A program made the translations under genes and the position numbers. Below are positions 13,275 through 49,732 of a DNA stretch of 64,000 bases, one piece after another; within the stretch, counting starts at the first letter, position 1, and every line of letters starts with the position of its first letter. The notes beneath the pieces were generated by a model. That model made no database searches. It was not told where the DNA came from and saw nothing but the letters and a program-made list of their open reading frames with translations. Where the stretch lies: assembly GCA_963727625.1 (NCBI GenBank), contig CAVSHR010000005.1:480001-544000 (forward strand), read 5' to 3'. The stretch comes from an uncultured delta proteobacterium. Its GTDB lineage: Bacteria; Desulfobacterota; Binatia; UBA9968.

Positions 13275-13379
13275 TCGCAGGTTTTAGGACGTAGCGTTGC
13301 AGCCGCGAATCGTTAAGTTCGGGCACTGGCCTGACGCAATCGCGGCAGCTTCCCGTACACTGAAATTTCGCAGCCTAGG

Positions 13380-13800
13380 CTACTTTTTCCCCAGCGTATT
13401 TATGAAGCTGGGGTCGATCATTTCGTTCGCGGACATTGTGCCCTTTAGTCTGCCGGTCTCCATCTCCCTCTCCACGGCGACGGTGATGCCGGCGTCGAGA
13501 ATACGACCGTCGAGCGGGAAAGAAGCACGGTATTCGTCGTAGCCCGCGGCCGCCTCACCGGCGTTAAGCGCGACGCATTTTCGTAGCGCGCGAATGCCGT
13601 CGTCACGGTTCTCGCGCGCGTGCTTCACGCCGCGCTGTTTGGAGTTCGACTGGGTTTACAGTGAATCCAGACGAAAGAAAACCATCGAGCGGCAAAGCTA
13701 CACCTATTGTCCGAATCAAGGCATGGTCCGACAAGTCCAGCATAAAGCCTTGATTCACGATTCGCATCACGGCCGGTGCTTGAACGCGATGCGGACGCCG
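13380..13800 (-). pseudogene. Frameshifted C-terminal fragment of an NMT1/SsuA-type solute-binding protein
   Basis: Two overlapping frames (LSSGFTVNP / HARENRDDGIRALRK...MIDPSFINTLGKK) match SBP C-terminal patterns; no N-terminus. Confidence 0.55.
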
Positions 13801-13891
13801 GCGCGCCCAAGAGCGCACGAATTGACTTTTCTTGTCGCCGCTGCGGTCATTCAAAATAGAATGACCGCAGTTCCGCGTGGGCTTATTCTAT

Positions 13892-14941
13892 CTATTTCTT
13901 CTTCTTGCCCGGTTTACGCACCAGGAACGACAAGCTCTCTTTCACGTCCGCCGGCATGCTGAGAATCGCATTGACCAATTTTTCAACCTTTTCACCCGGC
14001 ACGGGTGTGATCACCAGTTTGGATTTCTTTGCATCCTTGAGCAGTTCGGGATCTTTCAGAGTTTCCAGAAATGCCTTGCGGAGAATTTCCAAGCGATCTT
14101 TCGGCGTACCTGGCGGCAGCGAGAATGCCCGCTGAAAATCCATCTGAAAGGCCCAACTCTCATAGATCGCGTATTTCTTCGGGTCTTTGATCGCTTCTTT
14201 GAAGGTCGGGAGATTTTTGACCTGCGGATCTTCCCAAGTGCGCTCGTTGATGATGAAGGGAATCAGCTTGCCGTCGCCGGGCGCGTCGAGCATCGCGCGC
14301 GCCGTCACGCGCATCGATTCCCACTGGGAACAGAACGCCTGCAGTTCGTGTTTTTGCAGCGCGACACGGGTCGTCGAAGTGCCGGTGTAACCGGAGACGA
14401 CGTCGAATTTGGTGCCCAAGGTCTTGTTCATGATCAGCGGTAAATCGTAACCGGTCGATCCGGCGCGGGTGGCGCCGACTTTGAGAGGCTTCTTGTAATT
14501 CAAGACATCTTCGAGGGTTTTCAATCCGGTGAAGCCCATCACCATGCACACGGGCGCTCCGACACTGGGCGCGCCCACCCAGCCGAATTTGTTGAAATCC
14601 AAACGGATCTTGGGATCGCCCAGGGCGTGTTGCACGACGAGCGAATTGTTGAAGGTGCCGAAAGTCAGTCCGTCCGGTTCAGCACGTTTGTACAAATAAT
14701 TGGCGAGCACCAAGCCGCCCGCGCCAGTCATGTTTTCAACGACGGTCGATGGATGGCCCGGAATATGGCGGACGATATGCCTCGCGATGATGCGCGTGTA
14801 GGTATCGTAACCGCCGCCAGGCGCGCCAAAGACCATGAGGCGAACCGTCTTTCCCTGGTAAAAATCCTCGGCCGCTGCGGTTCCGTATCCGACACACAGC
14901 GCGATGAGCACTAGAAATATCCGAGCAAAAATAGTTTTCAT
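13892..14941 (-). CDS. Bug/TctC-family tripartite tricarboxylate transporter substrate-binding protein
   Basis: FYQGKTV, PGGGYDTYTR, VENMTGAGG, PDGLT and PPGTPKDR motifs; GGAGG RBS. Confidence 0.92.
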   Translation of the reverse strand: MKTIFARIFLVLIALCVGYGTAAAEDFYQGKTVRLMVFGAPGGGYDTYTRIIARHIVRHIPGHPSTVVENMTGAGGLVLANYLYKRAEPDGLTFGTFNNSLVVQHALGDPKIRLDFNKFGWVGAPSVGAPVCMVMGFTGLKTLEDVLNYKKPLKVGATRAGSTGYDLPLIMNKTLGTKFDVVSGYTGTSTTRVALQKHELQAFCSQWESMRVTARAMLDAPGDGKLIPFIINERTWEDPQVKNLPTFKEAIKDPKKYAIYESWAFQMDFQRAFSLPPGTPKDRLEILRKAFLETLKDPELLKDAKKSKLVITPVPGEKVEKLVNAILSMPADVKESLSFLVRKPGKKKK

Positions 14942-15277
14942 AAAAGCCTCCTCCTCTTTAGCGAATCGTTATTCACGTTTTACGGTTACGGTGTTCTTAA
15001 GAATTCCTTAGGGTCGTGCGCCCCTTGAGTCAAGGCGGTTGGCAAAATTTATTTTCTACGCTTCGCACCGGCATAACGGAATCAAGAAACGTGGATAGGC
15101 GCCAAACCGTGACAGAGGTGAGGCTGTCCGTGCAAGCAAAGGAGCGGAAGCTTCGCCGGATTCCGAGGTAAACAAGCTTTACACGGATCCGGCTAGTTAA
15201 GCGCTTCATTTTTTAGGCTGATATCAAGTTGGCAGAAGAAATTCTTACGCGATAGCAGGACGCGATTTCGACTCCAC

Positions 15278-15335
15278 TGTATATTTTATTCACACGATAT
15301 TTTGATTTTGCCCTTGAGTGTGCGCAATCTTTACA
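15278..15335. promoter_or_regulatory. Two TGT-N11-ACA palindromes, candidate enhancer sites
   Basis: TGTatattttattcACA (15278-15294) and TGTgcgcaatctttACA (15319-15335), 41 bp apart, about 100-150 bp upstream of the sigma54 motif. Confidence 0.45.
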
Positions 15336-15430
15336 TCATGCAAATTTGCCATCGCAACCGGCGGCCGCCGGTGCCGGATAAGCGTGGGTTTTCCTTTAAT
15401 ATCCGGCTTTTTGGTTGATCGGTTTCTTGT

Positions 15431-15445
15431 TGGCATCCTCCTTGC
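15431..15445 (+). promoter_or_regulatory. Sigma54 (-24/-12) promoter of the ABC operon
   Basis: TGGCATCCTCCTTGC matches TGGCA-N6-TTGC with exact GG-N10-GC spacing. Confidence 0.7.
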
Positions 15446-15629
15446 GCAGCGGAGATTTGGGAGTTCGTCCACCATTCCGTCACGAACTCTCCTCGCGCTT
15501 ATGCGCGCTCGTCGGTGTGCCGCCGAAGAGAGAAAAATATCAGTTTTTTTGTAGTTGGCGACGGGTTTCGTGTCGAAATCGCCGCATAATTTATGTTCGC
15601 AAAATAATTTTGTACCGGGAGGTGAAATC

Positions 15630-16700
15630 ATGAAGCGTTCGTTAGTCTCCAGCGGACTGTTCCTCTGCTTTTTTGCGGCCTTTTCATTTTCTATAGTCCA
15701 TGCCGCGAACGTACCAAATTGGTGGATCGGCCCAAAGGGCGAATATGAGAAACTGGTCGAAGGGGCAAAAAAAGAGGGGCACCTGGTCCTCTGGTCTCAC
15801 CCAGATCCTTCCTGCACACCGTTGATCGCCGGGCCGTTTGAAAAGGACTACGGCGTTAAGGTTGAGCACACCGAATACACCACGGCGCAAATCGTCCAGC
15901 GGATTCTGCTCGAAGGAGTCGCCGGGATGTATACGGTCGACGTCGGAAACCTCAGCGTTCACCATGTGCCGCGTTTGGAGCAAAAGGGGCTTTTACAGAA
16001 GTTGAACTATCGAGAGAACGTAACCACATACAGAGAAGTGCCCAAAATGGTCAGCCCGCACAGCACGGCGTTCATCGGTTGGACCAGCCCGCGCGGCCTC
16101 GCATATAACACTGCCAAAATTCCGAAAGACAAAGTGCCCAACAGTTATGACGAGGTACTAAATCCGATGTTCGCGAACCGCAAGATTTCTGTGGACACGG
16201 ATCTAAAAGAGTACATCATCCTGGCGCACCAGTGGGGCATGGAAAAAACTAAACAGTTCGTCAAAAAGCTTGGGGAGATGAAGCCCAAATTCCACCCCAA
16301 TAATACCGTCATCACCCAAATGGTTGCCGCCGGAGAGACGCTCATCGCCCCCGGTGTCATTCGTCGCATTCCTCTATACGAATTCAAGAATAAAGGGGCA
16401 CCGATCGATTGGAAACCGCTCAAACCTCTTGTGCCGGTGGACACCTTGTTAATGGGCGTAATGTCTCACGCGCCCCATCCTAACGCGGCCGCTTTGTGGG
16501 CCTATTGGGTCATGGGAGCGCCCGACTATCTCAAGGGCATGGATAAGTGCGGCGGTTACGGCAATGTGGAGGTTCCCGGCACCCCCTTCCATGACAAATT
16601 TAAAGGCTGGAACTTGGAGGTCTTCGATTGGAATTGGGGCGTGCGCGCCGCCAAGGAACATATGGGCGAAGAGTTTCGAAAAATAATCGGCCTTGAATAG
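15630..16700 (+). CDS. ABC transporter substrate-binding protein (Fe3+-type family)
   Basis: GGAGG RBS; signal peptide; GAKKEGHL, AYNT and HAPHPNAAALW motifs. Confidence 0.88.
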   Translation: MKRSLVSSGLFLCFFAAFSFSIVHAANVPNWWIGPKGEYEKLVEGAKKEGHLVLWSHPDPSCTPLIAGPFEKDYGVKVEHTEYTTAQIVQRILLEGVAGMYTVDVGNLSVHHVPRLEQKGLLQKLNYRENVTTYREVPKMVSPHSTAFIGWTSPRGLAYNTAKIPKDKVPNSYDEVLNPMFANRKISVDTDLKEYIILAHQWGMEKTKQFVKKLGEMKPKFHPNNTVITQMVAAGETLIAPGVIRRIPLYEFKNKGAPIDWKPLKPLVPVDTLLMGVMSHAPHPNAAALWAYWVMGAPDYLKGMDKCGGYGNVEVPGTPFHDKFKGWNLEVFDWNWGVRAAKEHMGEEFRKIIGLE

Positions 16701-16726
16701 ATTTCGCGGTCGTTAGAGAGCAGATT

Positions 16727-18499
16727 ATGGCTACTGCCGCTCAGGTAGAGCAGTACCAACCCGTTGGTAGAACCCGGGCGAACCTCAGCCAGTGGTTCAA
16801 TGTTCGCATGCTCGTTTTCTGCAGCATCGTCGGATTACTGGCCTATTTAACGTTCGGCCCCTTGCTGTTCTTGTTGTGGGATAGTGTCCATCCAGGCTGG
16901 GAGATCGGCGACCAAGTCGCTTTGACATTCGGTAGTTACGTCAACGTCTTCACCGATCGCCATTTCATGGAAATGATCTGGAACACGACGGTCTTCGGCG
17001 TCAGCGCCACCGCCGTCGCGGTGGGACTCGGCACATTGTTCGCCTGGTTAGTCGAGCGCACCAACATGCCGTTTCGCAACGTCACGTACGCATTACTTTT
17101 CGCCCCAGTCGCGATTCCGGGCCTGGTATTCGCGATTTCTTATATCTTGCTCTTGAGCCCCGACATCGGCGTCATCAATAAAGTGTTGATGGATTTGTTC
17201 GGTTTCAAAGACGCACCGCTGAACATTTATTCGATGACCGGGCTGATTTTCATTGAGGGAATTCGCCTGACGCCGGGGAGTTTTCTCATGATGGCAGCTG
17301 TGCTCAAAAGCATGGATCCGTCCCTCGAAGAGGCAGCATACACCACCGGAGCAGGAATCGTTCGCACCTCGCGGTTGATCACCGCACCGCTCATGCTACC
17401 AGGAATCTTGGCAGCCTGTATTTACTATTTCATCACGGTTATCGAGTCGTTCGAAGTACCGGCGATCGTCGCATTGCCGATCGGCATGCAGCTGCTCACC
17501 ACGAAAATCTTTTTCGCCACCAATGCGACGACGCGGATGCCTCAATACAGCGTGGCCGCGGCAGTTTCGATCATTTTCGTCGCCTTGAGCATCGTCCTGA
17601 TCTACCTTTATTCACGGGCAACCAAACACTCCGAGCGTTTTACCACCATCACCGGCAAAGCCTATCGTCCCCGCTTGATCGATTTGGGCAACTGGCGCTA
17701 CGCAGCCCTCGGTGTAACAGCTCTGTTTTTCGCCTTCTCAGTGATTTTTCCGCTGTTGGTGTTAATCTGGGGCAGTCTCTTGCCTTACATGCAGGCACCG
17801 TCGTTCGCCGCGCTGGCGAACGCGTCCTTTGAAAGCTATCGAGATTTGGGACGCATTCCGCAATTCGGTCTCGCGCTGAAGAACACCGTCTACGTCACAT
17901 TAGCCGTTGCCACCGTCACAATGCTGATTTCGTCTCTCGCGGCGTGGTTTGTCGTGCGCGGCAAGATCCGCGGCGGCCGGCAGCTCGACCTGCTGACGTT
18001 CCTACCCCACGCGATTCCAAGCATCGTGGTTGCTGTCGGGCTGATCATTTTTTATCTGCGCGTCAACTGGTTGATCCCGGTTTACGGAACGCTGTGGATC
18101 ATCATCATCGGCTTGGTCACGAAACGAGTCAGTTACGGCAGCCGGATCATGATCGGCGCCATGTTCCAACTGCACAAAGAGCTCGAAGAAGCTTCAGAAG
18201 TCTGCGGAGTCGGCTGGCTGAAGACTTTTTGTCTGATCACACTGCGCCTCATGATACCTGCGTTCGTCAACGGCTGGCTCTACATAGCAATGCTCAGCAT
18301 CGCGTTATTTACGATACCAGTCATGCTTTATACGCCCAAGAGTCTGGTCTTCTCCGTCTTGATTTGGAATCTCTGGGAGCAGGCCAAAGTCCAGGACGCC
18401 TGTGTCGTCGGCGTCATCATGGTGACGATCACCTTTACCCTGGTGTTTCTCGGACAATATTTTGCCTCCAAGGCGAAGGTGCGGGAAACCCTGAGTTAA
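16727..18499 (+). CDS. ABC transporter permease with two fused TM domains (FbpB-like)
   Basis: Two EAA loops (DPSLEEAAYTTGA, HKELEEASEVCG); AWLVERTNMP. Confidence 0.92.
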   Translation: MATAAQVEQYQPVGRTRANLSQWFNVRMLVFCSIVGLLAYLTFGPLLFLLWDSVHPGWEIGDQVALTFGSYVNVFTDRHFMEMIWNTTVFGVSATAVAVGLGTLFAWLVERTNMPFRNVTYALLFAPVAIPGLVFAISYILLLSPDIGVINKVLMDLFGFKDAPLNIYSMTGLIFIEGIRLTPGSFLMMAAVLKSMDPSLEEAAYTTGAGIVRTSRLITAPLMLPGILAACIYYFITVIESFEVPAIVALPIGMQLLTTKIFFATNATTRMPQYSVAAAVSIIFVALSIVLIYLYSRATKHSERFTTITGKAYRPRLIDLGNWRYAALGVTALFFAFSVIFPLLVLIWGSLLPYMQAPSFAALANASFESYRDLGRIPQFGLALKNTVYVTLAVATVTMLISSLAAWFVVRGKIRGGRQLDLLTFLPHAIPSIVVAVGLIIFYLRVNWLIPVYGTLWIIIIGLVTKRVSYGSRIMIGAMFQLHKELEEASEVCGVGWLKTFCLITLRLMIPAFVNGWLYIAMLSIALFTIPVMLYTPKSLVFSVLIWNLWEQAKVQDACVVGVIMVTITFTLVFLGQYFASKAKVRETLS

Positions 18500-18515
18500 A
18501 AATCGAGGCATCGCA

Positions 18516-19616
18516 ATGCTATTATCCGTTGATAAACTCGTAAAGAGCTATGGTGGCGACGTCCCCGCAGTCAAGGGCATCAGTTTCAACGTCGGCGAAG
18601 GAGAGTTTTATACCCTCCTGGGTCCAAGCGGCTGCGGCAAGACCACCACGTTGCGCTGCGTTGCTGGCCTGGAAAAACCGAACGGAGGGCAAATCTCCAT
18701 CGCCGAGAATATCGTTTTTTCCAGTGAGCAGAATATCTTGCTCCCCAGCCACAAGCGCGACATTGGCATGGTTTTCCAATCCTACGCCATCTGGCCGCAT
18801 ATGACGGTGTTCGACAACGTCGCCTTTCCGCTCAAACACAGCAAGCGCAAGGTACCTAAGCATCAGCTGCGTGACAAGGTAATGAAGGCGCTGAATCTGG
18901 TTCAGCTCGAAAACTTCGCCGATCGGCCGGCGCCGTTTTTGAGCGGCGGACAGCAGCAGCGTGTCGCGCTCGCCCGAGCGTTGGTCTACGAACCAAAGGT
19001 GCTTTTGCTCGATGAGCCGCTTAGCAACCTGGACGCCAAGCTGCGCGAAGAGATGCGCGTGGAATTAAAGCAGCTGGTCAGCCGCCTGAGCATTACCACT
19101 CTCTACGTGACCCACGATCAAGCCGAAGCCCTGGCATTGTCGGACCGGGTCGCGGTGATGAACCTAGGCAGGATTATCCAGGAAGGCACGCCGCGGCAAA
19201 TTTATCTCGAGCCGAAAGACGCATTCACCGCCAACTTCATCGGCCGGACCAATATTTTCAACGGCAGCGTCGTTACCGAATCGGCCCAGGACGGCGTCGG
19301 CGTGGTGGAGCTTGCCACCGGCCGGCTCGCCTGCTCGCTGCCTCAGGGATTGAAGCCCAAGGACAATGTTCAGCTTTTAATCCGACCGGAAGGCATAGAA
19401 ATTTTGGAGTCCAAGCCTGAGGCGAGCAACAACGTCATCGGCGGCGAAATTCTGTTGGCGACTTTCCAAGGCGATTCGGTGGAATACCATATCCGCGTCG
19501 GCGAACAGGAATGTCGAGTCAAAGGCGACGGACTAAAAGAGTTTGCCAAAACCCGCCAGGTGTTTCTCCATTTGCCGCCCGAGCGGTGCCTGGTCATTGA
19601 AAAACAAAGCGATTAA
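18516..19616 (+). CDS. ABC transporter ATP-binding protein with TOBE domain
   Basis: GPSGCGKT, LSGGQQQR, LLLDEP and YVTHD motifs. Confidence 0.95.
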   Translation: MLLSVDKLVKSYGGDVPAVKGISFNVGEGEFYTLLGPSGCGKTTTLRCVAGLEKPNGGQISIAENIVFSSEQNILLPSHKRDIGMVFQSYAIWPHMTVFDNVAFPLKHSKRKVPKHQLRDKVMKALNLVQLENFADRPAPFLSGGQQQRVALARALVYEPKVLLLDEPLSNLDAKLREEMRVELKQLVSRLSITTLYVTHDQAEALALSDRVAVMNLGRIIQEGTPRQIYLEPKDAFTANFIGRTNIFNGSVVTESAQDGVGVVELATGRLACSLPQGLKPKDNVQLLIRPEGIEILESKPEASNNVIGGEILLATFQGDSVEYHIRVGEQECRVKGDGLKEFAKTRQVFLHLPPERCLVIEKQSD

Positions 19617-20484: not shown

Positions 20485-21603
20485 ATGGCGATCGGACTAT
20501 CCCACGGCGGAACCAATGTTTATTCGGCACGTGAGCGATCACGCCAGCTTTGGGTGGCAACTCAAGACGGCATTGTGCTCTTTGAGCGCGGCGTTAATGA
20601 CGAGTGGCGCGAAGCTCAGCGCGCCCTGCGCGGCCAGCATATCAGCGCAATAATATTCGAGCCCACCACCGGGACGATGTTCGCGGGAGCCTTCTTCGGC
20701 TCCGTTCATGCGAGCAGCGACGGCGGCAAAACCTGGGAGCGCCGCGACAACGGCATCACGATTCACGATGTCTACAGTCTCGCTTCGAAGGCCGTCGACG
20801 GCAAAGTCCGGGTCTACGCCGGCACTCAACCGGCGCACTTGTTCGTCAGCGAGGATCTAGGGCTTCACTGGAGTGAAATCCCCTCGCTTCGCTCCGTGCC
20901 CTCGGCGGCGCAATGGTCCTTCCCTGCGCCTCCTCATATTGCGCACACAAAATTCATCACCTTCGATCCGCACGATTCCAAAACCATCTATGCCTGCGTC
21001 GAACAGGGCGCATTTTTAAAAAGCACCGACGAAGGCAAAACTTGGACCGAGTTGAATACCGTCGGACTGCTTGCCGACAAAAATCGCCCCGTGGAGCATT
21101 TTTATGACGTGCATCGCTGCTTGATCGATCCACGCGATCCAAAGAACATTTACGTCACCGGCGGCGCGGGGCTCTATGTCACCCGCACCGGCGGCGGCAG
21201 TTGGGAGCGCTGGACCAGCTCCGACTGGGCGGCGGACGTTTATCCCGACGGCTTCGTATGGAATCCGCAGAACCCCGATCTTATGTTTGTCTCCGCCGCG
21301 GAGCACAATCCGCAAACCTGGCGCAAAGCGGGACCGGCGGCCCGCGCCGGAGGTAAAATCTATCGCAGCCAGGACGGCGGCAAAAACTGGCAGCACCTCG
21401 GCGGCGGACTGCCTGAAAGTTTGAAGCATGAGTTCGGCGCGCTCTGCCTCGAAGAGTCAAACGGCACCTGCTCGATTTTCGGCGGCACCACCGGCGGGGA
21501 AGTTTTCTGCAGCGAAGATAATGGCGAGAGCTGGACGCTCATCACAGCCGAGCTGGCACCGATTTCGAAGAAGGGGCACGAGAGGTTGCTGGCGGCGAGC
21601 TAG
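20485..21603 (+). CDS. BNR/Asp-box beta-propeller protein
   Basis: SSDGGKTW, STDEGKTW and SQDGGKNW repeats; GGAGG RBS; no signal peptide. Confidence 0.88.
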   Translation: MAIGLSHGGTNVYSARERSRQLWVATQDGIVLFERGVNDEWREAQRALRGQHISAIIFEPTTGTMFAGAFFGSVHASSDGGKTWERRDNGITIHDVYSLASKAVDGKVRVYAGTQPAHLFVSEDLGLHWSEIPSLRSVPSAAQWSFPAPPHIAHTKFITFDPHDSKTIYACVEQGAFLKSTDEGKTWTELNTVGLLADKNRPVEHFYDVHRCLIDPRDPKNIYVTGGAGLYVTRTGGGSWERWTSSDWAADVYPDGFVWNPQNPDLMFVSAAEHNPQTWRKAGPAARAGGKIYRSQDGGKNWQHLGGGLPESLKHEFGALCLEESNGTCSIFGGTTGGEVFCSEDNGESWTLITAELAPISKKGHERLLAAS

Positions 21604-21675
21604 GTGATCGGGGAAGAAGCAATTTGGCGATCGGCACAACCTATTACCTGGGTATTCCTGGAATAATCAGCGACG

Positions 21676-22425
21676 ATGACTTCAACATGCGAGACTCCCG
21701 GTGCGATGCTTGCCGGACAGCTCCTCAAGCAAAGCGAGCAAGATGGCGCCGTCACCCCGATGGACGCCGTGCTCGACGCGGCGCTCGCGAAAAGCTTCAC
21801 CGACGATCGCTGCTATCGGCTGCTCGCCCGTTTCTGGACGCTCAAGCGCATGATGTATTACGTCTATGGCGGCTGGGCCCAGGGAATTAATTTAAACGAG
21901 TACCCGCCTTCGGTCGCTTATCTCTTCGGCAAGCAGACCTACGACGAATCCACCCAAGAGATGCAGCTTTGCGACGAGATCTTGCGGCGCCGCTGGGCGC
22001 GCACGCAAAAGCAATTGTTCGCCCACCCCTACGCTCGGTTCGCCACGGCGACGCGCGCCGGGGCCTACATATTTTGCCTGCGAGCCCTCGCCAACTACCC
22101 CCAAAACGTTCGCATCGCCGCGCTCAACCTCGGGCCGAAGGTCATCGAGCTCGCCTGGACGGAAAAGTTCGCAAAGTCGATCCCCGACGAATCCATGCAC
22201 GCGATCTTTCAAAGCCAGCTCGCCGAAACTCGCAGCCATGTCCTGATGGGAAAATTTCAAACGGAACGTTTCATTCAAAAAAAGGTGGACGCCGAGCTGG
22301 CCAAGCGTTTATGCGCCGAAACCCGGCGTGACTATTTATTCTTCCTCGAAGAAACCGCCCGATTTGTCTTGGGTATGGAAGAAGAAAAGGCCGGTGAAGT
22401 GACCGTTTCTGGAGATATTGACTGA
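21676..22425 (+). CDS. Degenerate ferritin-like four-helix protein, paralog of 22859-23599
   Basis: KQTYDESTQ and SQLAETRSH...GKFQ align with RQIWDEVKH and SQSAEELMH...GKYQ. Confidence 0.7.
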   Translation: MTSTCETPGAMLAGQLLKQSEQDGAVTPMDAVLDAALAKSFTDDRCYRLLARFWTLKRMMYYVYGGWAQGINLNEYPPSVAYLFGKQTYDESTQEMQLCDEILRRRWARTQKQLFAHPYARFATATRAGAYIFCLRALANYPQNVRIAALNLGPKVIELAWTEKFAKSIPDESMHAIFQSQLAETRSHVLMGKFQTERFIQKKVDAELAKRLCAETRRDYLFFLEETARFVLGMEEEKAGEVTVSGDID

Positions 22426-22448
22426 TCGAAAAACGAACGGTTAAAGAT

Positions 22449-22510
22449 TTCAAGCTTCAAAAGCTCAATGAACTCCGACCTTGAACGCTTGAACCTTTGA
22501 ACATTGAACA
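22449..22510 (+). repeat. TTCAA/TTGAAC short-unit inverted and tandem array abutting a start codon
   Basis: TTGAAC at 22481, 22489, 22497 and 22504, preceded by complementary TTCAA units. Confidence 0.8.
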
Positions 22511-22783
22511 ATGCCGAAACTTAGAATCGACCACGATAAATGCACCGAGTGCCGCATGTGCTACGTCGTCTGCCGCGAGATCGACATCAATGCCGTCGTC
22601 GTCTCGCCGACGTCCCAGCACTTTCTGGCAATCGACGAGCGCTGCACCTATCCCGGTTGCACCGTTTGCCTGATGTACTGCCCGGCGGAAGGGTCCATCG
22701 TCGAAACGAACACGGGACGATCCATGGTCCCTCCGCCGCCCGAAGTCTGGACGGAAAATCGAAGGTGGCCGCGTCTACCCTAA
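22511..22783 (+). CDS. Dicluster-type 4Fe-4S ferredoxin with atypical spacing
   Basis: CTECRMCYVVC and CTYPGCTVCLMYCP. Confidence 0.85.
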   Translation: MPKLRIDHDKCTECRMCYVVCREIDINAVVVSPTSQHFLAIDERCTYPGCTVCLMYCPAEGSIVETNTGRSMVPPPPEVWTENRRWPRLP

Positions 22784-22804
22784 ACTCATAAACGAACGAA
22801 AGCA

Positions 22805-22848
22805 TTCAAACGACTTGAACGTTTTGAACTGTTTGAACGATTTGAACG
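22805..22848 (+). repeat. TTGAAC tandem array with 9-bp period
   Basis: TTGAAC at 22815, 22824, 22833 and 22842; TTCAAACG immediately upstream. Confidence 0.8.
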
Positions 22849-22858
22849 GAGCCCCGTT

Positions 22859-23599
22859 ATGCAACCTATCCTCAAAAATTTTTTAGACCAATGGGTATAT
22901 CCGACAGGCTTTACCGGGCCCGGTTTCGATTTTCGCCTGCGCCAGACCGAGCGCTGCCTGCCGCTATGGGACAAACTCGTTGGGCAAGCGATTCAATTCG
23001 CCGAGAAGGATTTAAAATCCGGCAGCGGTGAATACAAAGCCGTGCGTGCTCGCGCCGGCTACGCCGCCGAGGGGCCGTTCATGTCGCTCAAGCAGATGTC
23101 GACGCAGATTCTCTCGGTCGAAATCGACGAGCAGCCGAAATATATCGACCTCCAGCGCATGCGCGCGCGGCAGATCTGGGACGAGGTGAAGCATGGCCAG
23201 CTCCACGCCGACGTGCTCCTGCGCGGCGGTTTCATAGAGCGCGAGGAAGAGTTAATGGACGATCCGCGCGCCAACACACAGCCCAAGCTCTCTTACTTCG
23301 GCATGACGGCGATGTTCCCGCATATCCATCCGCTGGCCCGCGCCGGCCAGCATTATTACAACGAATCGATGGCCTGCCTTGGGATCGCGGCGACGCTCAG
23401 CGTCATCGACGACGACCTGGTGCGCCACCAACTGCACAGCCAATCGGCCGAGGAGCTGATGCATTTCATGGAAGGCAAATATCAGATCGACGCCTATGCG
23501 CTCACGCCGGAAGATCAGAAGCCGATCGAAGAAGTCTTCGACTTTTTACTCAGGCCTTGGGCACCGGAGCCGAGCCGCGCTCTGGGCGGTTCGCAATGA
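22859..23599 (+). CDS. Ferritin-like diiron-carboxylate protein
   Basis: Ligand pattern E(AAEG)...DEVKH...E(YNES)...EELMH. Confidence 0.8.
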   Translation: MQPILKNFLDQWVYPTGFTGPGFDFRLRQTERCLPLWDKLVGQAIQFAEKDLKSGSGEYKAVRARAGYAAEGPFMSLKQMSTQILSVEIDEQPKYIDLQRMRARQIWDEVKHGQLHADVLLRGGFIEREEELMDDPRANTQPKLSYFGMTAMFPHIHPLARAGQHYYNESMACLGIAATLSVIDDDLVRHQLHSQSAEELMHFMEGKYQIDAYALTPEDQKPIEEVFDFLLRPWAPEPSRALGGSQ

Positions 23600-23690
23600 A
23601 GAAACGCTTGCGTGAAAGGATTTGGAATGAGGATTCTTTTTCGTTTGCGCTGAGCTTCTCGACGCACGAACGCTGCGAGCGGACCTAACG

Positions 23691-23900
23691 ATGAAAGTCA
23701 AAATTATTGAAAATCTCTGCATCGCCTGCGGCCTGTGCCGCGAGGTCTGCCCCGAGCGCGCGGTCCACCCGAAAATGCAGGACATCCATCACATGTACGA
23801 AGTGATCGAGAGCGAATGCACCGGCTGCGGTGATTGTGTTCCCTACTGCCCAGCGCCGGGGGCGCTCAAGGAATACGAGCTAACCGGCATCACGCACTAG
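23691..23900 (+). CDS. 2[4Fe-4S] ferredoxin
   Basis: CIACGLCREVCP and CTGCGDCVPYCP. Confidence 0.93.
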   Translation: MKVKIIENLCIACGLCREVCPERAVHPKMQDIHHMYEVIESECTGCGDCVPYCPAPGALKEYELTGITH

Positions 23901-23953
23901 TTTTTGACCTATCTTCCGCAACCGCACTTAAGAAACCCTCGGAGGAGTTGGCT

Positions 23954-25129
23954 ATGAGCACCGATCCACGCACTCGCAGCTTATCTGAAACCGCCGCACA
24001 ACGTGGCCCGAACCGGTCGCTTTTCACCAAGGGTGGCCCGCCAAACTACGTGGAGAAGTCACTGGCGGCCGCGGCCACCCCGTTCAAGGGCATCACCAGC
24101 GACGGCAACGTGATCCCCGGTCTTTTCGGCATCCAGAAGACCGGCGTTTCGACCCAGTCGATCCGCGAGGCCGCCGAAGCGTTTCTCGGGTCGCTGACCC
24201 CTGCGCAGCGCGCCAAGACGCTCTTTCCCGTCGACACTGACCAGTGGCGTAAGTGGAGCAATATTCATCCGACGCTCATGCGGCACGGCACGCCGCTGTT
24301 CGAGATGACCGATGCGCAGCGCGATTGTGCTTTTGCGTTGCTGCGCGAGAGCTTGAGCGGGCAGGGTTTCGAAGAAGCCCTTGACCTCATGCACTTGAAC
24401 GAAACCGTCCAAGAGATGACCGGCCGGGTCGACGAGTACGGCGAAGACCTCTACTGGCTGAGCATCATGGGCACGCCGTCCGCGACCGAGCCCTGGGGCT
24501 GGCAGTGGGACGGCCATCATCTGATCATCAATTATCTGGTGCTCGGCGATCAGGTGGTGGCGACGCCGACCTTTTTGGGGGCTGAGCCGGTGCACGCCCG
24601 AATCGGCAAATACGCCGGCCTGCGCGCTTTCAAAGCCGACGAAGACCGCGGCTTGGCGCTTGCCCGCACGCTTTCCGATACCCAGCGCGCCAAGACAGTG
24701 CTTGCGCCGGAAACGTCCGGCGAGGATTTCACCACCGCGTTTCGCGATAACCTCGTGCTGGATTATGCGGGTATTCGCTACGAAGACCTTTCGACCCAGC
24801 AGCATGATCTCTTGCTTCAACTGGTCAACTATCACGTCGGGCGCCTGCGCAACGGCCATGCTCAATTGAAAATGGACGAAGTGAAGCGCCATTTGAAGGA
24901 CACGCATTTCTGCTGGATGGGCGGCATGGAGAACGACAGCACTTTTTACTACCGCGTGCAGAGCCCGGTGATCATCGTCGAGTTCGATCACCAGCGCGGT
25001 ATCGCCTTCCGCGAAAAGACCAAGCCGTATAAAGACCATATCCACGTGATCGTGCGCACGCCCAACGGCAACGACTACGGCAAAGATCTCTTGCGCCAGC
25101 ACTATCAATACGGCCATCACGCCAGGTAG
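23954..25129 (+). CDS. DUF3500 family protein
   Basis: GGAGG RBS; PWGWQWDGHHL, YYRVQSP and HIHVIVRTPNGNDYGKDLLRQHY motifs. Confidence 0.85.
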   Translation: MSTDPRTRSLSETAAQRGPNRSLFTKGGPPNYVEKSLAAAATPFKGITSDGNVIPGLFGIQKTGVSTQSIREAAEAFLGSLTPAQRAKTLFPVDTDQWRKWSNIHPTLMRHGTPLFEMTDAQRDCAFALLRESLSGQGFEEALDLMHLNETVQEMTGRVDEYGEDLYWLSIMGTPSATEPWGWQWDGHHLIINYLVLGDQVVATPTFLGAEPVHARIGKYAGLRAFKADEDRGLALARTLSDTQRAKTVLAPETSGEDFTTAFRDNLVLDYAGIRYEDLSTQQHDLLLQLVNYHVGRLRNGHAQLKMDEVKRHLKDTHFCWMGGMENDSTFYYRVQSPVIIVEFDHQRGIAFREKTKPYKDHIHVIVRTPNGNDYGKDLLRQHYQYGHHAR

Positions 25130-25207
25130 CGGCGGTCCTTGTACCGTACCACCAAATAAGCGGTCGAAAATTGACTAAAAATTGGCCCGATAGCATAAGG
25201 AGGCATC

Positions 25208-25840
25208 ATGCTCGAATTCGAAGGCCGGCAGATCCCCAATGAGCTCAAAGAGATCGTCGATCCCAAACGTACCGTGCTCCTGGTCTGGGACATGCAGAAC
25301 GATCAAGCCGGCGGCGCCTTCAACAAAGAGGCGCTGATTCGAAACGCACCGCCGCTCATCGACGCGGCGGCGAAAGCAAGGATCAAAACCATCTACACGC
25401 GTCAGACCCCCTTTCTCTGGAAAGACGAAGCTGCGGTGTGGATCCGCCGGGGCATGAAAGATCAAAAAGTCGACCACCCGGGCAAGCTCAAGCCGCGCCG
25501 CCTGCATGGCAGTTTCGGCTGGAATCTCATGGAACCGTTCAAGCCTGGCCCGGATGACATGGTGATCGACAAGCGCCGTCCGACCATGTTCATCGGCAAT
25601 GAGTTTGAAACCGTCATGAATAATATCAGCGCGACCACGGTTGTCATGATCGGCTGCACCACCGACGGCGGCGTCGAAGCCACAGTGCGGGAGGGGTTCA
25701 ATCGCAGTTACTTCATGGTCATCCCGCGCGACTGCGTCGGCACTTATACCGAAGAAGGCCACAACGCCGCGCTCAAACGCATGGAGCGCTTCGCCGAAGT
25801 CATCGATTCCAAAGAACTGATCGATCTTTGGCGACGGTGA
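25208..25840 (+). CDS. Isochorismatase/cysteine-hydrolase family protein lacking the Cys nucleophile
   Basis: LLVWDMQND and IDKRR present; GCTTDGGVEAT where GxxTxxCV is usual. Confidence 0.88.
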   Translation: MLEFEGRQIPNELKEIVDPKRTVLLVWDMQNDQAGGAFNKEALIRNAPPLIDAAAKARIKTIYTRQTPFLWKDEAAVWIRRGMKDQKVDHPGKLKPRRLHGSFGWNLMEPFKPGPDDMVIDKRRPTMFIGNEFETVMNNISATTVVMIGCTTDGGVEATVREGFNRSYFMVIPRDCVGTYTEEGHNAALKRMERFAEVIDSKELIDLWRR

Positions 25841-25846
25841 GCTTCG

Positions 25847-26251
25847 ATGAAAGTTGAAGTTAGTGAAGCGGTCAAAAAACTTCATGGTGGCGATGAGGAG
25901 AATGCATTCCTTGAGTTGATCGAGCTGCCGGGCGAAGTGTTGCCGGCGATCGTCGACTTTTTCCATGTCGAAACCGAGCCCCCTATCCGGGCTTTTCTAA
26001 TTAAGGCCGCTTGGGAGCGCGGCGATGACTCAGCAATTCCACTGTTGGCTGAAGCCTTGAACGACGATGCGGAAGAAGTTTGGCAGGAAGCTCTCGATGG
26101 CCTCGTGGCCTTTGCCTGCTTGAACACGCTCGAGATCCTCATCCAAGGGCGGTCGCGCGAGTTTGCCGACCGAGAGGCCGCCAAGCGCTTCCGGCTTTGG
26201 CTGGAAGAAGCGATTCAACAAATTCAATTCGAGCTCCGAGCCAAAGCCTAA
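25847..26251 (+). CDS. HEAT-repeat-like helical protein
   Basis: AIPLLAEALNDDAEEVWQEALDGL. Confidence 0.75.
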   Translation: MKVEVSEAVKKLHGGDEENAFLELIELPGEVLPAIVDFFHVETEPPIRAFLIKAAWERGDDSAIPLLAEALNDDAEEVWQEALDGLVAFACLNTLEILIQGRSREFADREAAKRFRLWLEEAIQQIQFELRAKA

Positions 26252-26336
26252 TTTTAGCTTTCCCCGTTTGCGTAATTCATCCCGAAGGAGTTAAAAGATT
26301 TTAAGTTCCCTCGATAATTCGTCAAAGGAGATCGCT

Positions 26337-27305
26337 ATGGCTGGAACAATCGGCAAGAAGGCGCTTCACGTCGCCACCTTTTCCGGATGGTATCGTTTTG
26401 AGCAAGATGGCAAAGAGTTCAAACAAACCAAACGGGATCTAACCTACTGGACCCTCACCTGCATGTCGGTCGATCCGCAGAGTCCGGAAAAGATTTACGC
26501 CGGCAGCGAGCATTCCGGGCTTTTCTACACGGAGAACGGCGGCAAGAACTGGAAGCGCGCCGAACCGAACACGCCCAAGATGATGCTGTATTCGACCCTG
26601 GCGCTCAATGGCGGAGTGATGGTCGGGACCATTCCGTCCGCCGTCTTTCGCAGCAAGAACGGCGGATGGGAAGAATTGGAAGGCGTGCGTGTCAACAGCG
26701 CCGGCGCCAATTTTCCGCCCAGTCCGGAACTGCAATCCCGCGCACGCTATCTCACTTTCGATCCCGTCGCGCCTGCACGCCTCTACGCCGGCATTGAAGT
26801 CGGCGGCATGCTGGTCAGCGACGACAGCGGCTGCACCTGGAAACCCGCAAACGAAGGGTTGACCGACATGGACATTCATGAGGTGCTCGCTAGTGAGGCG
26901 AACCCCGGCATGGTCTACCTCGCCTGTGGTGAAGCCTGCTTCCGCAGCTTCGACCGCGCCGCCCATTGGCAAGACATGTCACCCAAGTCGCACGATTACG
27001 GCACGTCGGTAGCCGAAGACAAAAACGGCGTCGTCTTTCTCGGCTGCGGCAAGGGGCGACCCAACAAATGGATTCGCGAGGAAGGCGCGAACGCGGCGAT
27101 CTTCCGCAGCCCGGACAAGGGCGCGACCTGGGAAACACTCGTCGGCAACCTTACGGGGGGCGTGATGCATATGTGCCCCACCCCTGACGGCAATGGAATG
27201 GTGGCCGGCACCTCCGACGGTTCGTTGCTGGTGATTGACGACAAGGGCGTGCGCGAAGTCGTCAGCGGTTTGCCCTTCGTAACCTCGGTGGAGTTGGCGG
27301 CGTAG
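26337..27305 (+). CDS. BNR/Asp-box beta-propeller protein
   Basis: TENGGKNW, SDDSGCTW and SPDKGATW repeats; LYAGIEVGG; AAGGAG RBS. Confidence 0.85.
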   Translation: MAGTIGKKALHVATFSGWYRFEQDGKEFKQTKRDLTYWTLTCMSVDPQSPEKIYAGSEHSGLFYTENGGKNWKRAEPNTPKMMLYSTLALNGGVMVGTIPSAVFRSKNGGWEELEGVRVNSAGANFPPSPELQSRARYLTFDPVAPARLYAGIEVGGMLVSDDSGCTWKPANEGLTDMDIHEVLASEANPGMVYLACGEACFRSFDRAAHWQDMSPKSHDYGTSVAEDKNGVVFLGCGKGRPNKWIREEGANAAIFRSPDKGATWETLVGNLTGGVMHMCPTPDGNGMVAGTSDGSLLVIDDKGVREVVSGLPFVTSVELAA

Positions 27306-27465: not shown

Positions 27466-28110
27466 ATGAAGCTTTACACGTTTTTTCGCAGTTCCGCTTC
27501 CTACCGCGTGCGCATCGCGCTCAATATAAAGGGCCTGACTTATGAGCAGGCGCCGGTCCATCTGCGGCGCGGCGGCGGCGAGCAACTGGCACCAGCCTAC
27601 AAGGCGATCAATCCTCAAGCGCTCGTGCCTGCGCTGGAAGACAACGGGAAGGTTCTCACGCAATCGCTAGCTATTATCGAGTATCTGGAAGAGACCCATC
27701 CAAAACCAGCGCTGCTTCCCACCGACCCGGCCGACAAGGCGCTGGTGCGCGGAATGGCCATGGTCATCGCCTGCGAAGTGCATCCAATTCAGAATCTGCG
27801 CGTGCTCAATTACGTTAAGAAAGAATACGGCCAGTCCGACGAGCAGGTGAATCGCTGGGCGCAGCATTGGATCGATCTCGGCCTGGGCGCTCTGGAACAA
27901 ATGATTCTCGCTCAGCCCAAGCGCGGCAAATTCTGCTTCGGCGACGCGCCGAGCCTCGCCGATATTTGCCTGATCCCACAGCTCGGCAACGCCCGTCGCT
28001 ACGGCTGCGATCTGTCCAAGTACCCGACGATTATAGCCATCGAAAAGACTTGCATGGCGCTGCCGCCCTTCGCCGCAGCCGCGCCGGAAAAGCAGCCGGA
28101 CGCGGAATAA
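27466..28110 (+). CDS. maiA: Maleylacetoacetate/maleylpyruvate isomerase (GST zeta)
   Basis: FRSSASYRVRIALNIKG, NPQALVP and ACEVHPIQNLRV motifs. Confidence 0.93.
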   Translation: MKLYTFFRSSASYRVRIALNIKGLTYEQAPVHLRRGGGEQLAPAYKAINPQALVPALEDNGKVLTQSLAIIEYLEETHPKPALLPTDPADKALVRGMAMVIACEVHPIQNLRVLNYVKKEYGQSDEQVNRWAQHWIDLGLGALEQMILAQPKRGKFCFGDAPSLADICLIPQLGNARRYGCDLSKYPTIIAIEKTCMALPPFAAAAPEKQPDAE

Positions 28111-29096: not shown

Positions 29097-30374
29097 ATGT
29101 TGCCCCGCGAAGACAACGATTTACTCACCCAGGTTGGTGCTGGAAGGCCGCTCGGCCGGCTCCTGCGGCACTACTGGATTCCCGCGTTGTTGTCGCAGGA
29201 AATCCCCGAACCCGACAGCCCGCCGGTGCACGTCCGCCTGCTTGGCGAAGATTTGGTGGCGTTTAGAGACAGCCAAGGTCGGGTCGGGCTCTTGGACGAA
29301 CATTGCTCGCATCGCGGCACTTCGTTGTTTTTTGGGCGTAACGAGGAATGCGGCGTGCGCTGCATTTACCACGGCTGGAAATTCGACGTTGACGGCAACG
29401 TCTTGGAAACCCCGGCGGAGCCCGCCGACAGCACATTGAAAAATAAAGTGCACCACACTGCTTATCCATGCCGGGAAGCTGCGGGTGTCGTCTGGAGCTA
29501 TCTCGGTGCTAGAGAAAGCATGCCGCTCTTGCCGAATTACGAGTGGATGAATTTGCCGCTCGAAAATTTATACGTCACCAAATCAGTGCAGGATTGCAGC
29601 TGGCTCCAAGGCCTCGAAGGTGAATGCGACTCGTCCCATCTGTCCATTCTGCACAAAGCCTTTTCGGAACGGCAGCGCGGCGGCGGCGATCCGGACATGT
29701 ACGCCGCCGATACCGCGCCAAGCCTCGAAGGCGCCGAAACCGACTACGGTATCCGAATGATTTCCTGCCGCAAAGCCGACAACGATACGATCTACCTGCG
29801 AGTTTCCAACATCGTGTTGCCCTGCCACGGCTTCATCCCCACCGGCGGCCTCAAAGGCAACGCCGAGGGCTATACGATTCATTCGCACGTACCGATCGAC
29901 GACACCCGCAGCATGCGTTACAACATTCACTTCCGGAGAAGCCGACCGATCCACGCCGAAGAGCGGCAGCACGAGCGCGAGATCGAGGCGAATTTTACAA
30001 AAGTGCGCAACCTGCAAAACAACTATCTCCAAAATCGCGAAGAGCAGCGAAGCGAGACCTTCACGGGGATGGGCAGAACCTTCCTGGTCCACGATTCCTG
30101 CGCCACCGAAAGCATGGGACCGATCTACGACCGCTCCCAGGAACATCTCGGCGCGAGCGACGGGACCGTAATCGCAGTTCGGCGCTTCTTGCTGAAGTGC
30201 GTTCGGGGCGCGATGGCCGGCAACGAGCCGCCGCATGTTATTCACAATGCCGAACAGAACGACCTGCGCCACCTGGCGTGCATCGTCGCCAAGATCCCCT
30301 CAACTAAAAAGCCGGAACAGTTTGTCTCCGAACAGTTGATTAAAGAGAAATACTGGGAGACAGCGAGCAAGTAG
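29097..30374 (+). CDS. Rieske non-heme iron oxygenase alpha subunit (phthalate 4,5-dioxygenase-like)
   Basis: CSHRG...CIYHGW Rieske site; DSSHLSILH and HD mononuclear Fe ligands. Confidence 0.92.
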   Translation: MLPREDNDLLTQVGAGRPLGRLLRHYWIPALLSQEIPEPDSPPVHVRLLGEDLVAFRDSQGRVGLLDEHCSHRGTSLFFGRNEECGVRCIYHGWKFDVDGNVLETPAEPADSTLKNKVHHTAYPCREAAGVVWSYLGARESMPLLPNYEWMNLPLENLYVTKSVQDCSWLQGLEGECDSSHLSILHKAFSERQRGGGDPDMYAADTAPSLEGAETDYGIRMISCRKADNDTIYLRVSNIVLPCHGFIPTGGLKGNAEGYTIHSHVPIDDTRSMRYNIHFRRSRPIHAEERQHEREIEANFTKVRNLQNNYLQNREEQRSETFTGMGRTFLVHDSCATESMGPIYDRSQEHLGASDGTVIAVRRFLLKCVRGAMAGNEPPHVIHNAEQNDLRHLACIVAKIPSTKKPEQFVSEQLIKEKYWETASK

Positions 30375-47628: not shown

Positions 47629-47963
47629 GCGATTCACCTCCGATAAAACTTCTCGACGAAATCGAGATGGGTTCGCAGGTCTTGCGGCGCCATAAAATTG
47701 GTCGATCCCGACTCGACGATTTTAGAGCTCTCTTCGCCTAAAAACTGGTGACGACAATTGGAATACATTGCCTTTATTTTTTTGTGCCGCAGTTCCTGGC
47801 AGAGACGATAAAACTCACCCTTGCACTGAGGATACGTTACCCAGAAGATTTTCGTCACGGTTTCTCCCGGCCTCAGCGACTTACATACAGAACCTGAAAA
47901 TTTATCTCTAATATTTTTTGCGCCGCGACAATGTGAGTAAACCATAGGATCGCATTTTTATCG

Positions 47964-48146
47964 CGCCAAGACGCTGAGCATTCCCGAAGCAAAATCCTAA
48001 ATCCAAAACACCAAATCCGAAACAAACCAAAATACGCAAAGTCGAAAACCAAAAAGATAAAATCCAAAATGAGGGAGTTTCGGACTTTATGTTATTGGGT
48101 CATTTGAATTTGTGTCGAAGTTAGGATTTGCAGCTTTGTCTTGGCG
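47964..48146. repeat. Nested imperfect inverted-repeat element, A-rich left arm and T-rich right arm
   Basis: cgccaagac/gtcttggcg (47964/48146), aaatcctaa/ttaggattt (47992/48129), tccgaaac/gtttcgga (48016/48084). Confidence 0.7.
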
Positions 48147-48251
48147 TCCTTTGCGACTTTGTGTGCGTTACTTACTTTTTGAGAAAGCTCTTCAGATTTT
48201 TCTTTTCGCCGTACAATTGTGGCGCGCTTGCGGACTTCAATGCGAGCACCG

Positions 48252-49697: not shown

Positions 49698-49732
49698 TTT
49701 TCCATCCCTCCAACGCCGGTGTTATTTGAAAA

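Follow-up and report, generated by a model that had tools for sequence, protein, structure and literature searches.

What is encoded by a block of four genes in which two related proteins of no named family alternate with two small ferredoxins? The block lies in a 64,000-nucleotide stretch of DNA, hereafter the window, from an uncultured delta proteobacterium (GTDB lineage Desulfobacterota; Binatia; UBA9968; assembly GCA_963727625.1, contig CAVSHR010000005.1, positions 480,001–544,000 of the forward strand), within a gene cassette spanning window positions 20,485–27,305. It consists of subunit A (249 aa, 21676–22425), the ferredoxin Fd1 (90 aa, 22511–22783), subunit B (246 aa, 22859–23599) and the ferredoxin Fd2 (69 aa, 23691–23900); all genes of the cassette are on the + strand, and the open reading frame (ORF) list gives intergenic gaps of 6–160 bases. 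A first-pass annotation of the sequence had proposed a heterodimeric enzyme arisen from a duplicated ferritin-plus-ferredoxin unit, with B complete and A degenerate in its metal ligands. We favor, with a probability of roughly 55%, the reading that A–Fd1–B–Fd2 is a self-contained and portable module, a ferredoxin-dependent di-metal (most likely diiron) oxygenase or oxidase with a ligand-poor partner subunit.

The cassette is real, conserved and unannotated. A scan of species-representative genomes (one genome per species) gave 155 pattern matches, 138 of which encode a B relative, and the best 80 loci were kept. All 80 come from metagenome-assembled genomes (MAGs); the carriers are uncultured bacteria, mostly from soil, and the MAGs are labeled as Binatia/"Deltaproteobacteria," Methylomirabilota/Rokubacteria, Dehalococcoidia/Chloroflexota, Alphaproteobacteria (Stellaceae), Gammaproteobacteria, Verrucomicrobia and a few others. 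Among the 75 loci with at least 1,400 bp upstream of B, A was found upstream of B in 74 and Fd1 between A and B in 72, and Fd2 followed within 500 bp in 71 of the 75 loci with at least 500 bp downstream. The upstream misses were L075, without A and Fd1, and L040 and L051, without Fd1 between A and B; downstream, Fd2 was missing after B in L040, L051 and L056, and L052 was counted as a miss as its B and Fd2 form one frame. In several long-read MAGs A was split into pieces, consistent with frameshift errors. The four-gene core, the conservation of which the first-pass annotation had suggested checking, is thus kept across phyla, and the separate occurrence of A and B that it saw as fatal to its proposal is not what these loci show. 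The host genome holds a single copy of B.

Sequence comparison shows A and B to be true paralogs. The single-pair BLASTP match is weak (20% identity over 155 columns, E 0.003), and it aligned the same blocks that had earlier been matched by eye, KQTYDESTQ with RQIWDEVKH and SQLAETRSH..GKFQ with SQSAEELMH..GKYQ. When the two families were compared with hhalign, using alignments of 24 orthologs each drawn from the same 23 loci across phyla plus the window, the match reached 92.3% probability (E 5.7e-7, 118 columns), superseding the 19% obtained earlier from shallow alignments. A search with the B-family profile covered 1.84 billion representative proteins and returned only 111, mostly fragments, and no large named superfamily emerged from it. 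Eight full-length distant relatives match both the A and the B profile (e.g., P0336 with 73.6 and 46.5 bits) and so bridge the two families. One of the distant relatives, P0301, carries the full ligand set and directly follows one 74-aa ferredoxin (1268–2323 of L082, the sole locus from the metagenome scan with a single distant-relative protein). This arrangement fits the claimed origin of the cassette by duplication, here of one such ferredoxin-plus-paralog unit, and is a possible ancestral one-unit form. A small protein comes after P0301, followed by family III CoA-transferase-like and enoyl-CoA-hydratase-like genes (assigned by eye from their translations), a hint of CoA-thioester substrates.

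The two families differ in their putative metal ligands. When 24 sequences of A and 24 of B were aligned by MAFFT together with the 8 that bridge them, Glu71, Glu109, His112, Glu169, Gln195, Glu198, Glu199 and His202 of B were invariant (24/24), as were the B-specific His157 and His190 (24/24), and Glu109, His112, Glu169, Glu199 and His202 were also kept in 8/8 distant relatives. The predicted helices of B place Glu71 in 58–84, Glu109 and His112 in 89–122, Glu169 in 160–180 and Glu199 and His202 in 186–213. Judged by sequence pattern and predicted helices, B thus shows the ferritin-type E/ExxH/E/ExxH pattern on two helix hairpins, as had been claimed for the window protein and as is true of the 24 family members; A does not. 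In A, Lys155 occupies the column of Glu169 of B in 24/24 orthologs, residue 185 is Thr (15) or Asn (9) in place of Glu199, and Glu184, His188 and Glu158 are invariant (24/24). Position 91 is Glu in 15 and Asp in 9 orthologs, position 94 His in 19 and Gln in 5, and position 57 Lys in 14, Glu in 9 and Asn in 1. The A protein of the window has Gln94, the minority state among the orthologs, and Lys57. The changes previously read from it, Gln94 for His and Thr185 and Lys155 for Glu, were found as described, and the further Glu-to-Lys change, put forward as probable, corresponds to Lys57 and stays probable, since positions A57 and B71 stand 2 columns apart in the alignment. The degeneration of the second site (Lys155, Thr/Asn185) is universal in the aligned A sequences and that of the first site (Gln94, Lys57) lineage-specific. 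Most orthologs keep Glu/Asp91, His94, Glu184 and His188, and the idea of a metal-free A is not supported as it was worded. Together with the synteny, the homology, conservation and ligand pattern of the two families are direct observations.

A and B are predicted to pair. They were co-folded with paired alignments in three runs alongside three controls, and the A–B pair had a median interaction prediction score from aligned errors (ipSAE) of 0.81 versus 0.00 for the best control. In the calibration of the method, 116 of 157 solved complexes scored this high, as did 2 of 215 mismatched pairs; the calibration is rough here owing to the custom alignments. The A–B runs agreed in at least 96% of contacts, with a predicted local distance difference test (pLDDT) score of at least 87 for the partner. 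The modeled interface comprises residues 72–117 and 129–139 of B and 58–96 and 111–122 of A, and its helices carry the first ligand motifs of both chains, including the invariant Tyr-rich stretch of A. The heterodimer proposed in the first-pass annotation is upheld in part: the loss of ligands in A is found in 24/24 orthologs and the pairing with B is predicted, the dimer itself coming from the model only.

All four core genes are under strong purifying selection, as estimated by the Nei–Gojobori method from the window and 20 Binatia-type loci. With only the pairs with a synonymous divergence (dS) of 0.05–2 retained (108/210 for A, 167/210 for B), the median ratio of nonsynonymous to synonymous divergence (dN/dS) was 0.109 for A, 0.074 for Fd1, 0.059 for B and 0.096 for Fd2. 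A is therefore no decaying copy, for which a ratio near 1 had been named as the sign. Across phyla, 35 positions of A are invariant, including the aromatic residues Trp54, Tyr61, Tyr62, Tyr64, Trp67, Tyr82, Trp161 and Tyr220. Such constraint gives weight to the main rival explanation, that the complex has two active centers: A would bind one metal (through Glu57, Glu91 and His94 where kept) or bear a radical or cofactor (with its Tyr/Trp residues and Lys155), and A–Fd1 and B–Fd2 would be ferredoxin-fed half-enzymes performing consecutive steps in one complex. A shows the same degree of constraint as the rest of the core; it is invariant across phyla at Trp54, Arg58, Tyr61, Tyr62, Tyr64, Trp67, Tyr82, Lys155, Glu158, Glu184, His188 and Glu197; Glu/Asp91-x2-His94 is kept in 19/24 orthologs and Glu57 in 9/24; and A has its own, even better conserved ferredoxin, Fd1 being 60–92% identical across phyla. 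We nevertheless regard two centers as unlikely, as the ligands are replaced by Lys155 and Thr/Asn185 in 24/24 A orthologs and the window protein additionally has Gln94 and Lys57. Furthermore, much of the invariant Tyr-rich stretch 58–78 lies in the predicted A–B interface, which by itself would account for its conservation.

The folds of A and B are likewise in silico predictions. The model of B had a pLDDT of 84.4 and a predicted template modeling score (pTM) of 0.83, and that of A a pLDDT of 66, with residues 65–127 below 50. Foldseek gave no match at E ≤0.001 for either model, and its best rows were heme-oxygenase-like: 3dde, UndA, TenA, BesC and CADD for B, and PolF and TenA for A. With a second aligner, B matched the TenA homologs 1rtw and 2rd3 at Z 13.7, 3dde and CADD at 13.6 (CADD with a root-mean-square deviation, rmsd, of 3.4 over 195 aligned residues), UndA at 12.2 and HrmI at 12.1, each of these spanning 194–209 residues, and BesC at 11.2; A matched TenA (1rtw) at Z 13.9, CADD at 13.3, HrmI at 12.8, PolF at 12.0 and heme oxygenases at about 10. 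Ferritin-like chains scored Z 10–11.3 against the core of B (PaaA 11.3, Dps-like and bacterioferritin chains 10–11, among them 8w1d with rmsd 2.7 over 143 of 147 residues) and Z 7–9.4 against A (ADO-like, R2lox, COQ7, R2 and PaaC). On these predicted models, the heme-oxygenase-like seven-helix fold is the best supported assignment for A and B. The label "ferritin-like" used in the first-pass annotation is thus not sustained, the models being closer to heme-oxygenase-like proteins (Z 12–13.9) than to ferritins. B would carry a ferritin-type ligand count (4 Glu, 2 His) on a predicted heme-oxygenase-like scaffold. A was also considered as a heme oxygenase proper and rejected, as its N-terminal helix has no invariant His.

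The ferritin-type ligand composition of B and the fit of Dps-like and bacterioferritin chains to its core would also suit a rubrerythrin-like system, redox-protective or reductive, in which a di-metal protein supplied by iron-sulfur carriers would reduce H2O2, O2 or NO, or handle iron, instead of oxygenating a substrate. Low-potential dicluster ferredoxins as donors would suit such a role, as would neighbors that vary among lineages in the manner of a stand-alone module. We consider it improbable: instead of stress genes, the recurring neighbors encode oxygenases, hydrolases and enzymes of the ring-cleavage type; substrate-binding heme-oxygenase-like enzymes provide the closest folds and share the additional helices at the N terminus; and a protective system gives no reason for a conserved ligand-poor partner. 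The fold comparison also raises another candidate, since the top match of both models is the TenA homolog 1rtw. A and B would then be a metal-free hydrolase or cofactor-less oxidase of the TenA/PqqC branch, and the ferredoxins would serve neighboring oxygenases (DUF3500, Rieske or PtmU3/DitZ-like). NMT1/THI5-like binding proteins are found near the cassette in 14 loci, and PtmU3/DitZ-type oxygenases of the high-potential class occur without a dedicated Rieske ferredoxin, according to PMC13154177. We find this highly improbable, as the Glu-x-x-His pairs and single Glu of B and of 8/8 relatives are the signature of a metal site and not of a TenA active site, the ferredoxins accompany A and B even where those other oxygenases are absent, and PF03070 matches neither A nor B.

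Both ferredoxins belong to the 2x[4Fe-4S] bacterial type, as judged from two four-Cys motifs and a Fer4-type match in each (Fd1, Fer4_21 38.8 bits with a cut-off of 35; Fd2, a canonical member, Fer4 47.1 bits). The eight Cys of Fd1, in the motifs CxxCxxCxxxC and Cx4CxxCxxxCP, are invariant in 21/21 orthologs and are followed by a conserved C-terminal tail, SI.E...G..VPP. Fd2 has two CxxCxxCxxxCP motifs, with seven Cys invariant and the eighth present in 20/21 orthologs. The two form separate orthologous groups with a mutual identity of 32%. One clean natural fusion of B with Fd2 was found (P0036, 319 aa); a second, P0024, was not counted, as its garbled ferredoxin end suggests a frameshift in the assembly. 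Fusions of B of greater length (432–2000 aa) were searched for and none was found, which is weak evidence. That each ferredoxin serves its own subunit, as the first-pass annotation had it, is a reading from gene order only.

As the first-pass annotation had concluded, A and B cannot be assigned to a named family. Neither matches a Pfam or NCBIfam model; Pfam searches at E up to 10 with 24 members of each family gave nothing meaningful, and no PF14518 (Haem_oxygenas_2) or PF03070 (TENA_THI-4); and sequence searches against PDB chains with A, B, the B-family profile and a distant relative gave chance-level matches only (E 0.1 or worse). The sole lead to PF14518 was a language-model neighbor cluster carrying that family with a score of 0.89. 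Of the 35 PF14518 matches in the host genome, 25 exceed the curated cut-off; the set includes neither A nor B even at E 10, and hhalign of A or B against 13 host PF14518 paralogs gave probabilities of 0.5% and 0.8%. These paralogs show the pattern E...H, E, H-x3-D-x2-H, and B has the same helix order and spacing. The three-His ligand set of heme-oxygenase-like di-metal oxidases and oxygenases (HDOs), E-x(n)-H, E, H-x3-D/E-x2-H, is not found in B, which has Glu109-x2-His112, Glu169 and Gln195-x3-Glu199-x2-His202, with Gln for the first His in 24/24 members; judged by its position five residues upstream of Gln195, His190 might be a substitute ligand. No ferritin-clan Pfam model matched A or B at a meaningful E-value. 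The weak leads to that clan were DUF455 in neighbor clusters and COQ7, ribonucleotide reductase small chain and rubrerythrin at E about 0.02 in one distant relative, and DUF455 (PF04305), which came from protein-atlas neighbors, was discarded as it matched neither A nor B in the host genome. As a separate observation, the expansion of PF14518 in the host genome is unusually large, at C5:822251–826558, C5:160988–162279 and some 30 further places outside the window (L083–L090, L094, L095). Several of these genes stand in tandem beside NMT1/THI5-like binding proteins, cupins, a dienelactone hydrolase and a glyoxalase-fold protein, and no ferredoxin was seen among their scanned neighbors.

Compared with known systems, the cassette is nearest to HDOs in structure, to PaaA/PaaC and the alpha/beta subunits of multicomponent monooxygenases in subunit logic, and to BoxAB in electron supply, and by sequence it is a member of none. 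With HDOs (UndA, CADD, BesC, SznF, HrmI, AetD, PolF, RohS) A and B share a size of about 250 aa and the predicted all-helical fold to which the best structural matches of both models belong, and the ligand helices of B come in the same order with similar spacing (Glu-x-x-His, Glu, x3-Glu-x2-His against the host PF14518 consensus). They differ from HDOs in having no profile match to PF14518 or PF03070, in the Gln195 of B in place of the first His of H-x3-D-x2-H and its 2 His and 4 Glu, in the predicted obligate heterodimer of B with a ligand-poor paralog, and in the two dedicated dicluster ferredoxins of the cassette; in the literature examined, no HDO with private ferredoxins was found. PaaA/PaaC and the multicomponent monooxygenases likewise combine a catalytic diiron subunit with a paralog that lacks the metal ligands. 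PaaA (3pvr_A) aligned with B at Z 11.3 (rmsd 3.1, 174 residues) and PaaC with A at only Z 7.0; there is no sequence similarity between PaaA/PaaC and A/B. Family III CoA-transferase genes near the cassette in 8 loci, and the one in L082, add to the likeness. Electrons reach the Paa system and the multicomponent monooxygenases through a flavin/[2Fe-2S] reductase and not through dicluster ferredoxins, and the subunits of both are larger. In the benzoyl-CoA epoxidase BoxAB, a diiron oxygenase does receive its electrons from [4Fe-4S] clusters. Those clusters are fused to a flavoprotein in BoxA, and the ferritin-like BoxB is large and has no degenerate partner; none of the searches run with A and B brought up a Box sequence or structure. 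Finally, the R2 subunits of metal-free class Ie ribonucleotide reductases stay functional although carboxylate ligands of their di-metal scaffold are exchanged, in one case for Lys. They differ from A in fold family and function, their chains reached only Z 6.7–7.6 against A, and a radical in A would be hypothetical.

From this evidence we infer the identity of the metal, the use of O2 and the path of electrons. B would carry the di-metal site, formed by Glu71, Glu109-x2-His112, Glu169 and Gln195-x3-Glu199-x2-His202. Because no reductase is encoded in the block, Fd1 and Fd2 would be reduced by a general cellular reductase encoded elsewhere. Fd2 may dock on B, as adjacency and the one clean fusion suggest, and electrons from the ferredoxins would reduce the di-metal site, which, as its ligand set and fold relatives suggest, would bind O2 and oxidize the substrate. 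A, having lost two or more carboxylate ligands, would pair with B through the helices of the first ligand motifs; it may hold B in the heterodimer, shape the substrate pocket, dock Fd1 or relay electrons. The block would be a portable module inserted in different oxidative pathways, and in the host and its relatives it would hydroxylate or oxidize a phenolic or aromatic-derived substrate before ring cleavage.

The genes around the core bear on that last step. In the cassette, the core is preceded by a BNR/Sortilin-type beta-propeller gene (propeller 1, 20485–21603; Sortilin-Vps10 61.2 bits, PSII_BNR 39.8 bits in Pfam) and followed by genes for a DUF3500 protein (23954–25129, with the open frame from 23834; PF12006 335.6 bits, cut-off 27.2, full model covered), an isochorismatase-family hydrolase (25208–25840; PF00857 138.6 bits), a small HEAT-like repeat protein (25847–26251; HEAT_2 25.3 bits, below the cut-off of 27.7) and a second BNR/Sortilin-type propeller (propeller 2, 26337–27305; Sortilin-Vps10 46 bits). 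This is the gene order given in the first-pass annotation, now backed by ORFs and Pfam matches, the one for the HEAT protein being below cut-off. NCBIfam matches of the hydrolase to biuret amidohydrolase and RutB were weak, far under their cut-offs, and in the two propellers a signal peptide is not obvious by eye. Further downstream, also on the + strand, lie the genes for maleylacetoacetate isomerase (MaiA, a zeta-class glutathione S-transferase; 27466–28110; TIGR01262 equivalog 296.5 bits, cut-off 171.05), a DUF218 protein and a Rieske oxygenase with a LigXa-like C-terminal domain (29097–30374; Rieske 59.8 bits, LigXa_C 103.3 bits), the DUF218 gene standing between the other two.

The surroundings of the core were compared among the 80 loci, with BLASTP clustering of every ORF up to 5 kb away. 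The window's own accessory genes occurred only in L001–L028, loci labeled almost entirely as Binatia or Deltaproteobacteria. Propeller 1 was found upstream of A in 25 of these and in none of L029–L080, and the neighbor cluster of propeller 2 in 25 of the first 28 loci, with a full-length downstream copy where the contig extends. Among the same 28, the isochorismatase-type hydrolase was present in 16, MaiA in 13 (downstream, 70–85% identity) and DUF3500 in 10, and the HEAT-like protein occurred in 5 loci, L015–L019. Rieske/LigXa-like orthologs with 66–83% identity lay downstream in L001, L006, L008 and L022. In other lineages the company of the core changes. A divergent LigB-type gene (class III extradiol dioxygenase-like) was found in 32/80 loci, which belong to the alphaproteobacterial-type clade, directly upstream of A where annotated, and an Amidohydro_2 gene in 27/80; Rieske ring-hydroxylating subunits occurred in L037, L038 and L041; and two Rokubacteria-type loci had Ldh_2, an adenylation-carrier-thioesterase protein, an aromatic amino acid lyase and a fumarylacetoacetate-hydrolase (FAH)-family protein. 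As the core travels with different ring-cleaving or oxygenating enzymes by lineage, we read it as a portable ferredoxin-driven oxygenase module.

The Amidohydro_2 gene follows Fd2 in L044 (9076–10266) and L062 (8896–10290), and its product has an N-terminal DxH and a C-terminal DxPHx[DE]; the best PDB matches of these proteins were PtmU3 (E 2.8e-34) and DitZ (E 2.3e-22), ahead of decarboxylases. The two motifs are signatures of amidohydrolase-related dinuclear oxygenases, as set out in PMC13154177. These two blocks bring together two different putative di-metal oxygenases and a LigB-like protein. For DUF3500, the functional information found is genetic and fungal only: work on Aspergillus nidulans (PMC10832562) describes a transient accumulation of 1,2,3,5-tetrahydroxybenzene when the deletion strain grows on gallate, proposes DUF3500 as a new ring-cleavage enzyme and finds bacterial DUF3500 genes often beside FAH-like genes. 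The solved relative of the DUF3500 protein is 9x86, "Amc20" (E 4.6e-29); the literature matches listed for that name were unrelated, and no paper on it was found among them. Tentatively, then, the cassette in the window may act ahead of DUF3500 and MaiA by oxidizing a compound that is phenolic or aromatic-derived, a substrate class read only from the neighborhood.

Other features of the window were noted in passing. Directly upstream of the cassette, at 12267–19616 (+), are genes for two SBP_bac_8 binding proteins, a fused double permease (590 aa) and an ATP-binding cassette (ABC) ATPase; they may form an uptake system for the substrate of the cassette, and they were not conserved among the related loci checked. 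A third BNR/Sortilin-type propeller gene stands at 4815–6002 (+), 15 kb upstream of the cassette. On the − strand at 46243–54929 lie genes for a UbiD-family decarboxylase, two AMP-dependent ligases and a xanthine-dehydrogenase-type molybdenum enzyme with its FAD subunit, which look like a second catabolic cluster for aromatic or heterocyclic acids. Between 19500 and 31000, a promoter scan found 5 promoter-like sites versus 4.4 expected from shuffled sequence, no useful excess, and a terminator scan also gave no useful excess over shuffled sequence, its sites being mostly within genes. In sequencing runs, the highest share of sampled words in any run was 0.22, and the contigs cover scattered short pieces. 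Among RNA data, one identical 140-nt piece covers the start of Fd1 (22489–22628), the other pieces being less than 90% alike; it is a contig piece flanked on either side by adaptor sequence, from the metatranscriptome of a salt marsh (run X6), and DNA carry-over is possible.

Several points weigh against a di-metal oxygenase with a ligand-poor partner. A and B match no known diiron family model, PF14518 included, and Gln195 stands at the third-His position of HDOs, so that the site of B is not canonical. Z scores of about 13–14 are within reach of common helical-bundle arrangements, and the model of A is poor at 65–127. As A and B are paralogous, the predicted interface may be a generic dimer mode in which AB is indistinguishable from AA and BB; the co-occurrence of the genes argues for AB over either homodimer. 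Low-potential dicluster ferredoxins are unusual donors for aerobic oxygenases. The neighbors vary by lineage; they may be poor guides to the substrate, or the module may function apart from them. The single 140-nt piece from an RNA library shows neither expression nor a co-transcript.

We found no paper describing the cassette in the literature on heme-oxygenase-like diiron enzymes, ferredoxins, DUF3500 and Binatia aromatics (subscription journals being outside the coverage), nor in the same literature the combination of a complete-plus-degenerate pair with two private dicluster ferredoxins and no reductase. A bolder version, which we think quite unlikely, is a new architecture: a heme-oxygenase-fold heterodimer in which A, with Lys155 and its Tyr/Trp cluster, would be no dead copy but a second, chemically different center (with a single metal, with a radical or as an electron relay) that its own ferredoxin connects to a diiron B. 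The four proteins would then perform a hydroxylation or ring activation, not yet assigned, as uncultured bacteria abundant in soil degrade compounds of polyphenol, lignin or tannin origin. New chemistry, such as N-oxygenation, fragmentation and desaturation, is currently being drawn from heme-oxygenase-like and ferritin-like di-metal oxygenases, and the A/B family is highly conserved in at least 138 species-representative genomes, yet has no Pfam or NCBIfam model. Should the module be an aromatic or phenolic hydroxylase acting with DUF3500 or LigB-type ring-cleavage enzymes, it would fill a step of carbon turnover in Binatia, Rokubacteria and Stellaceae-like bacteria. An enzyme class for which artificial reductants are the usual laboratory donors would in that case also gain electron donors that are defined.

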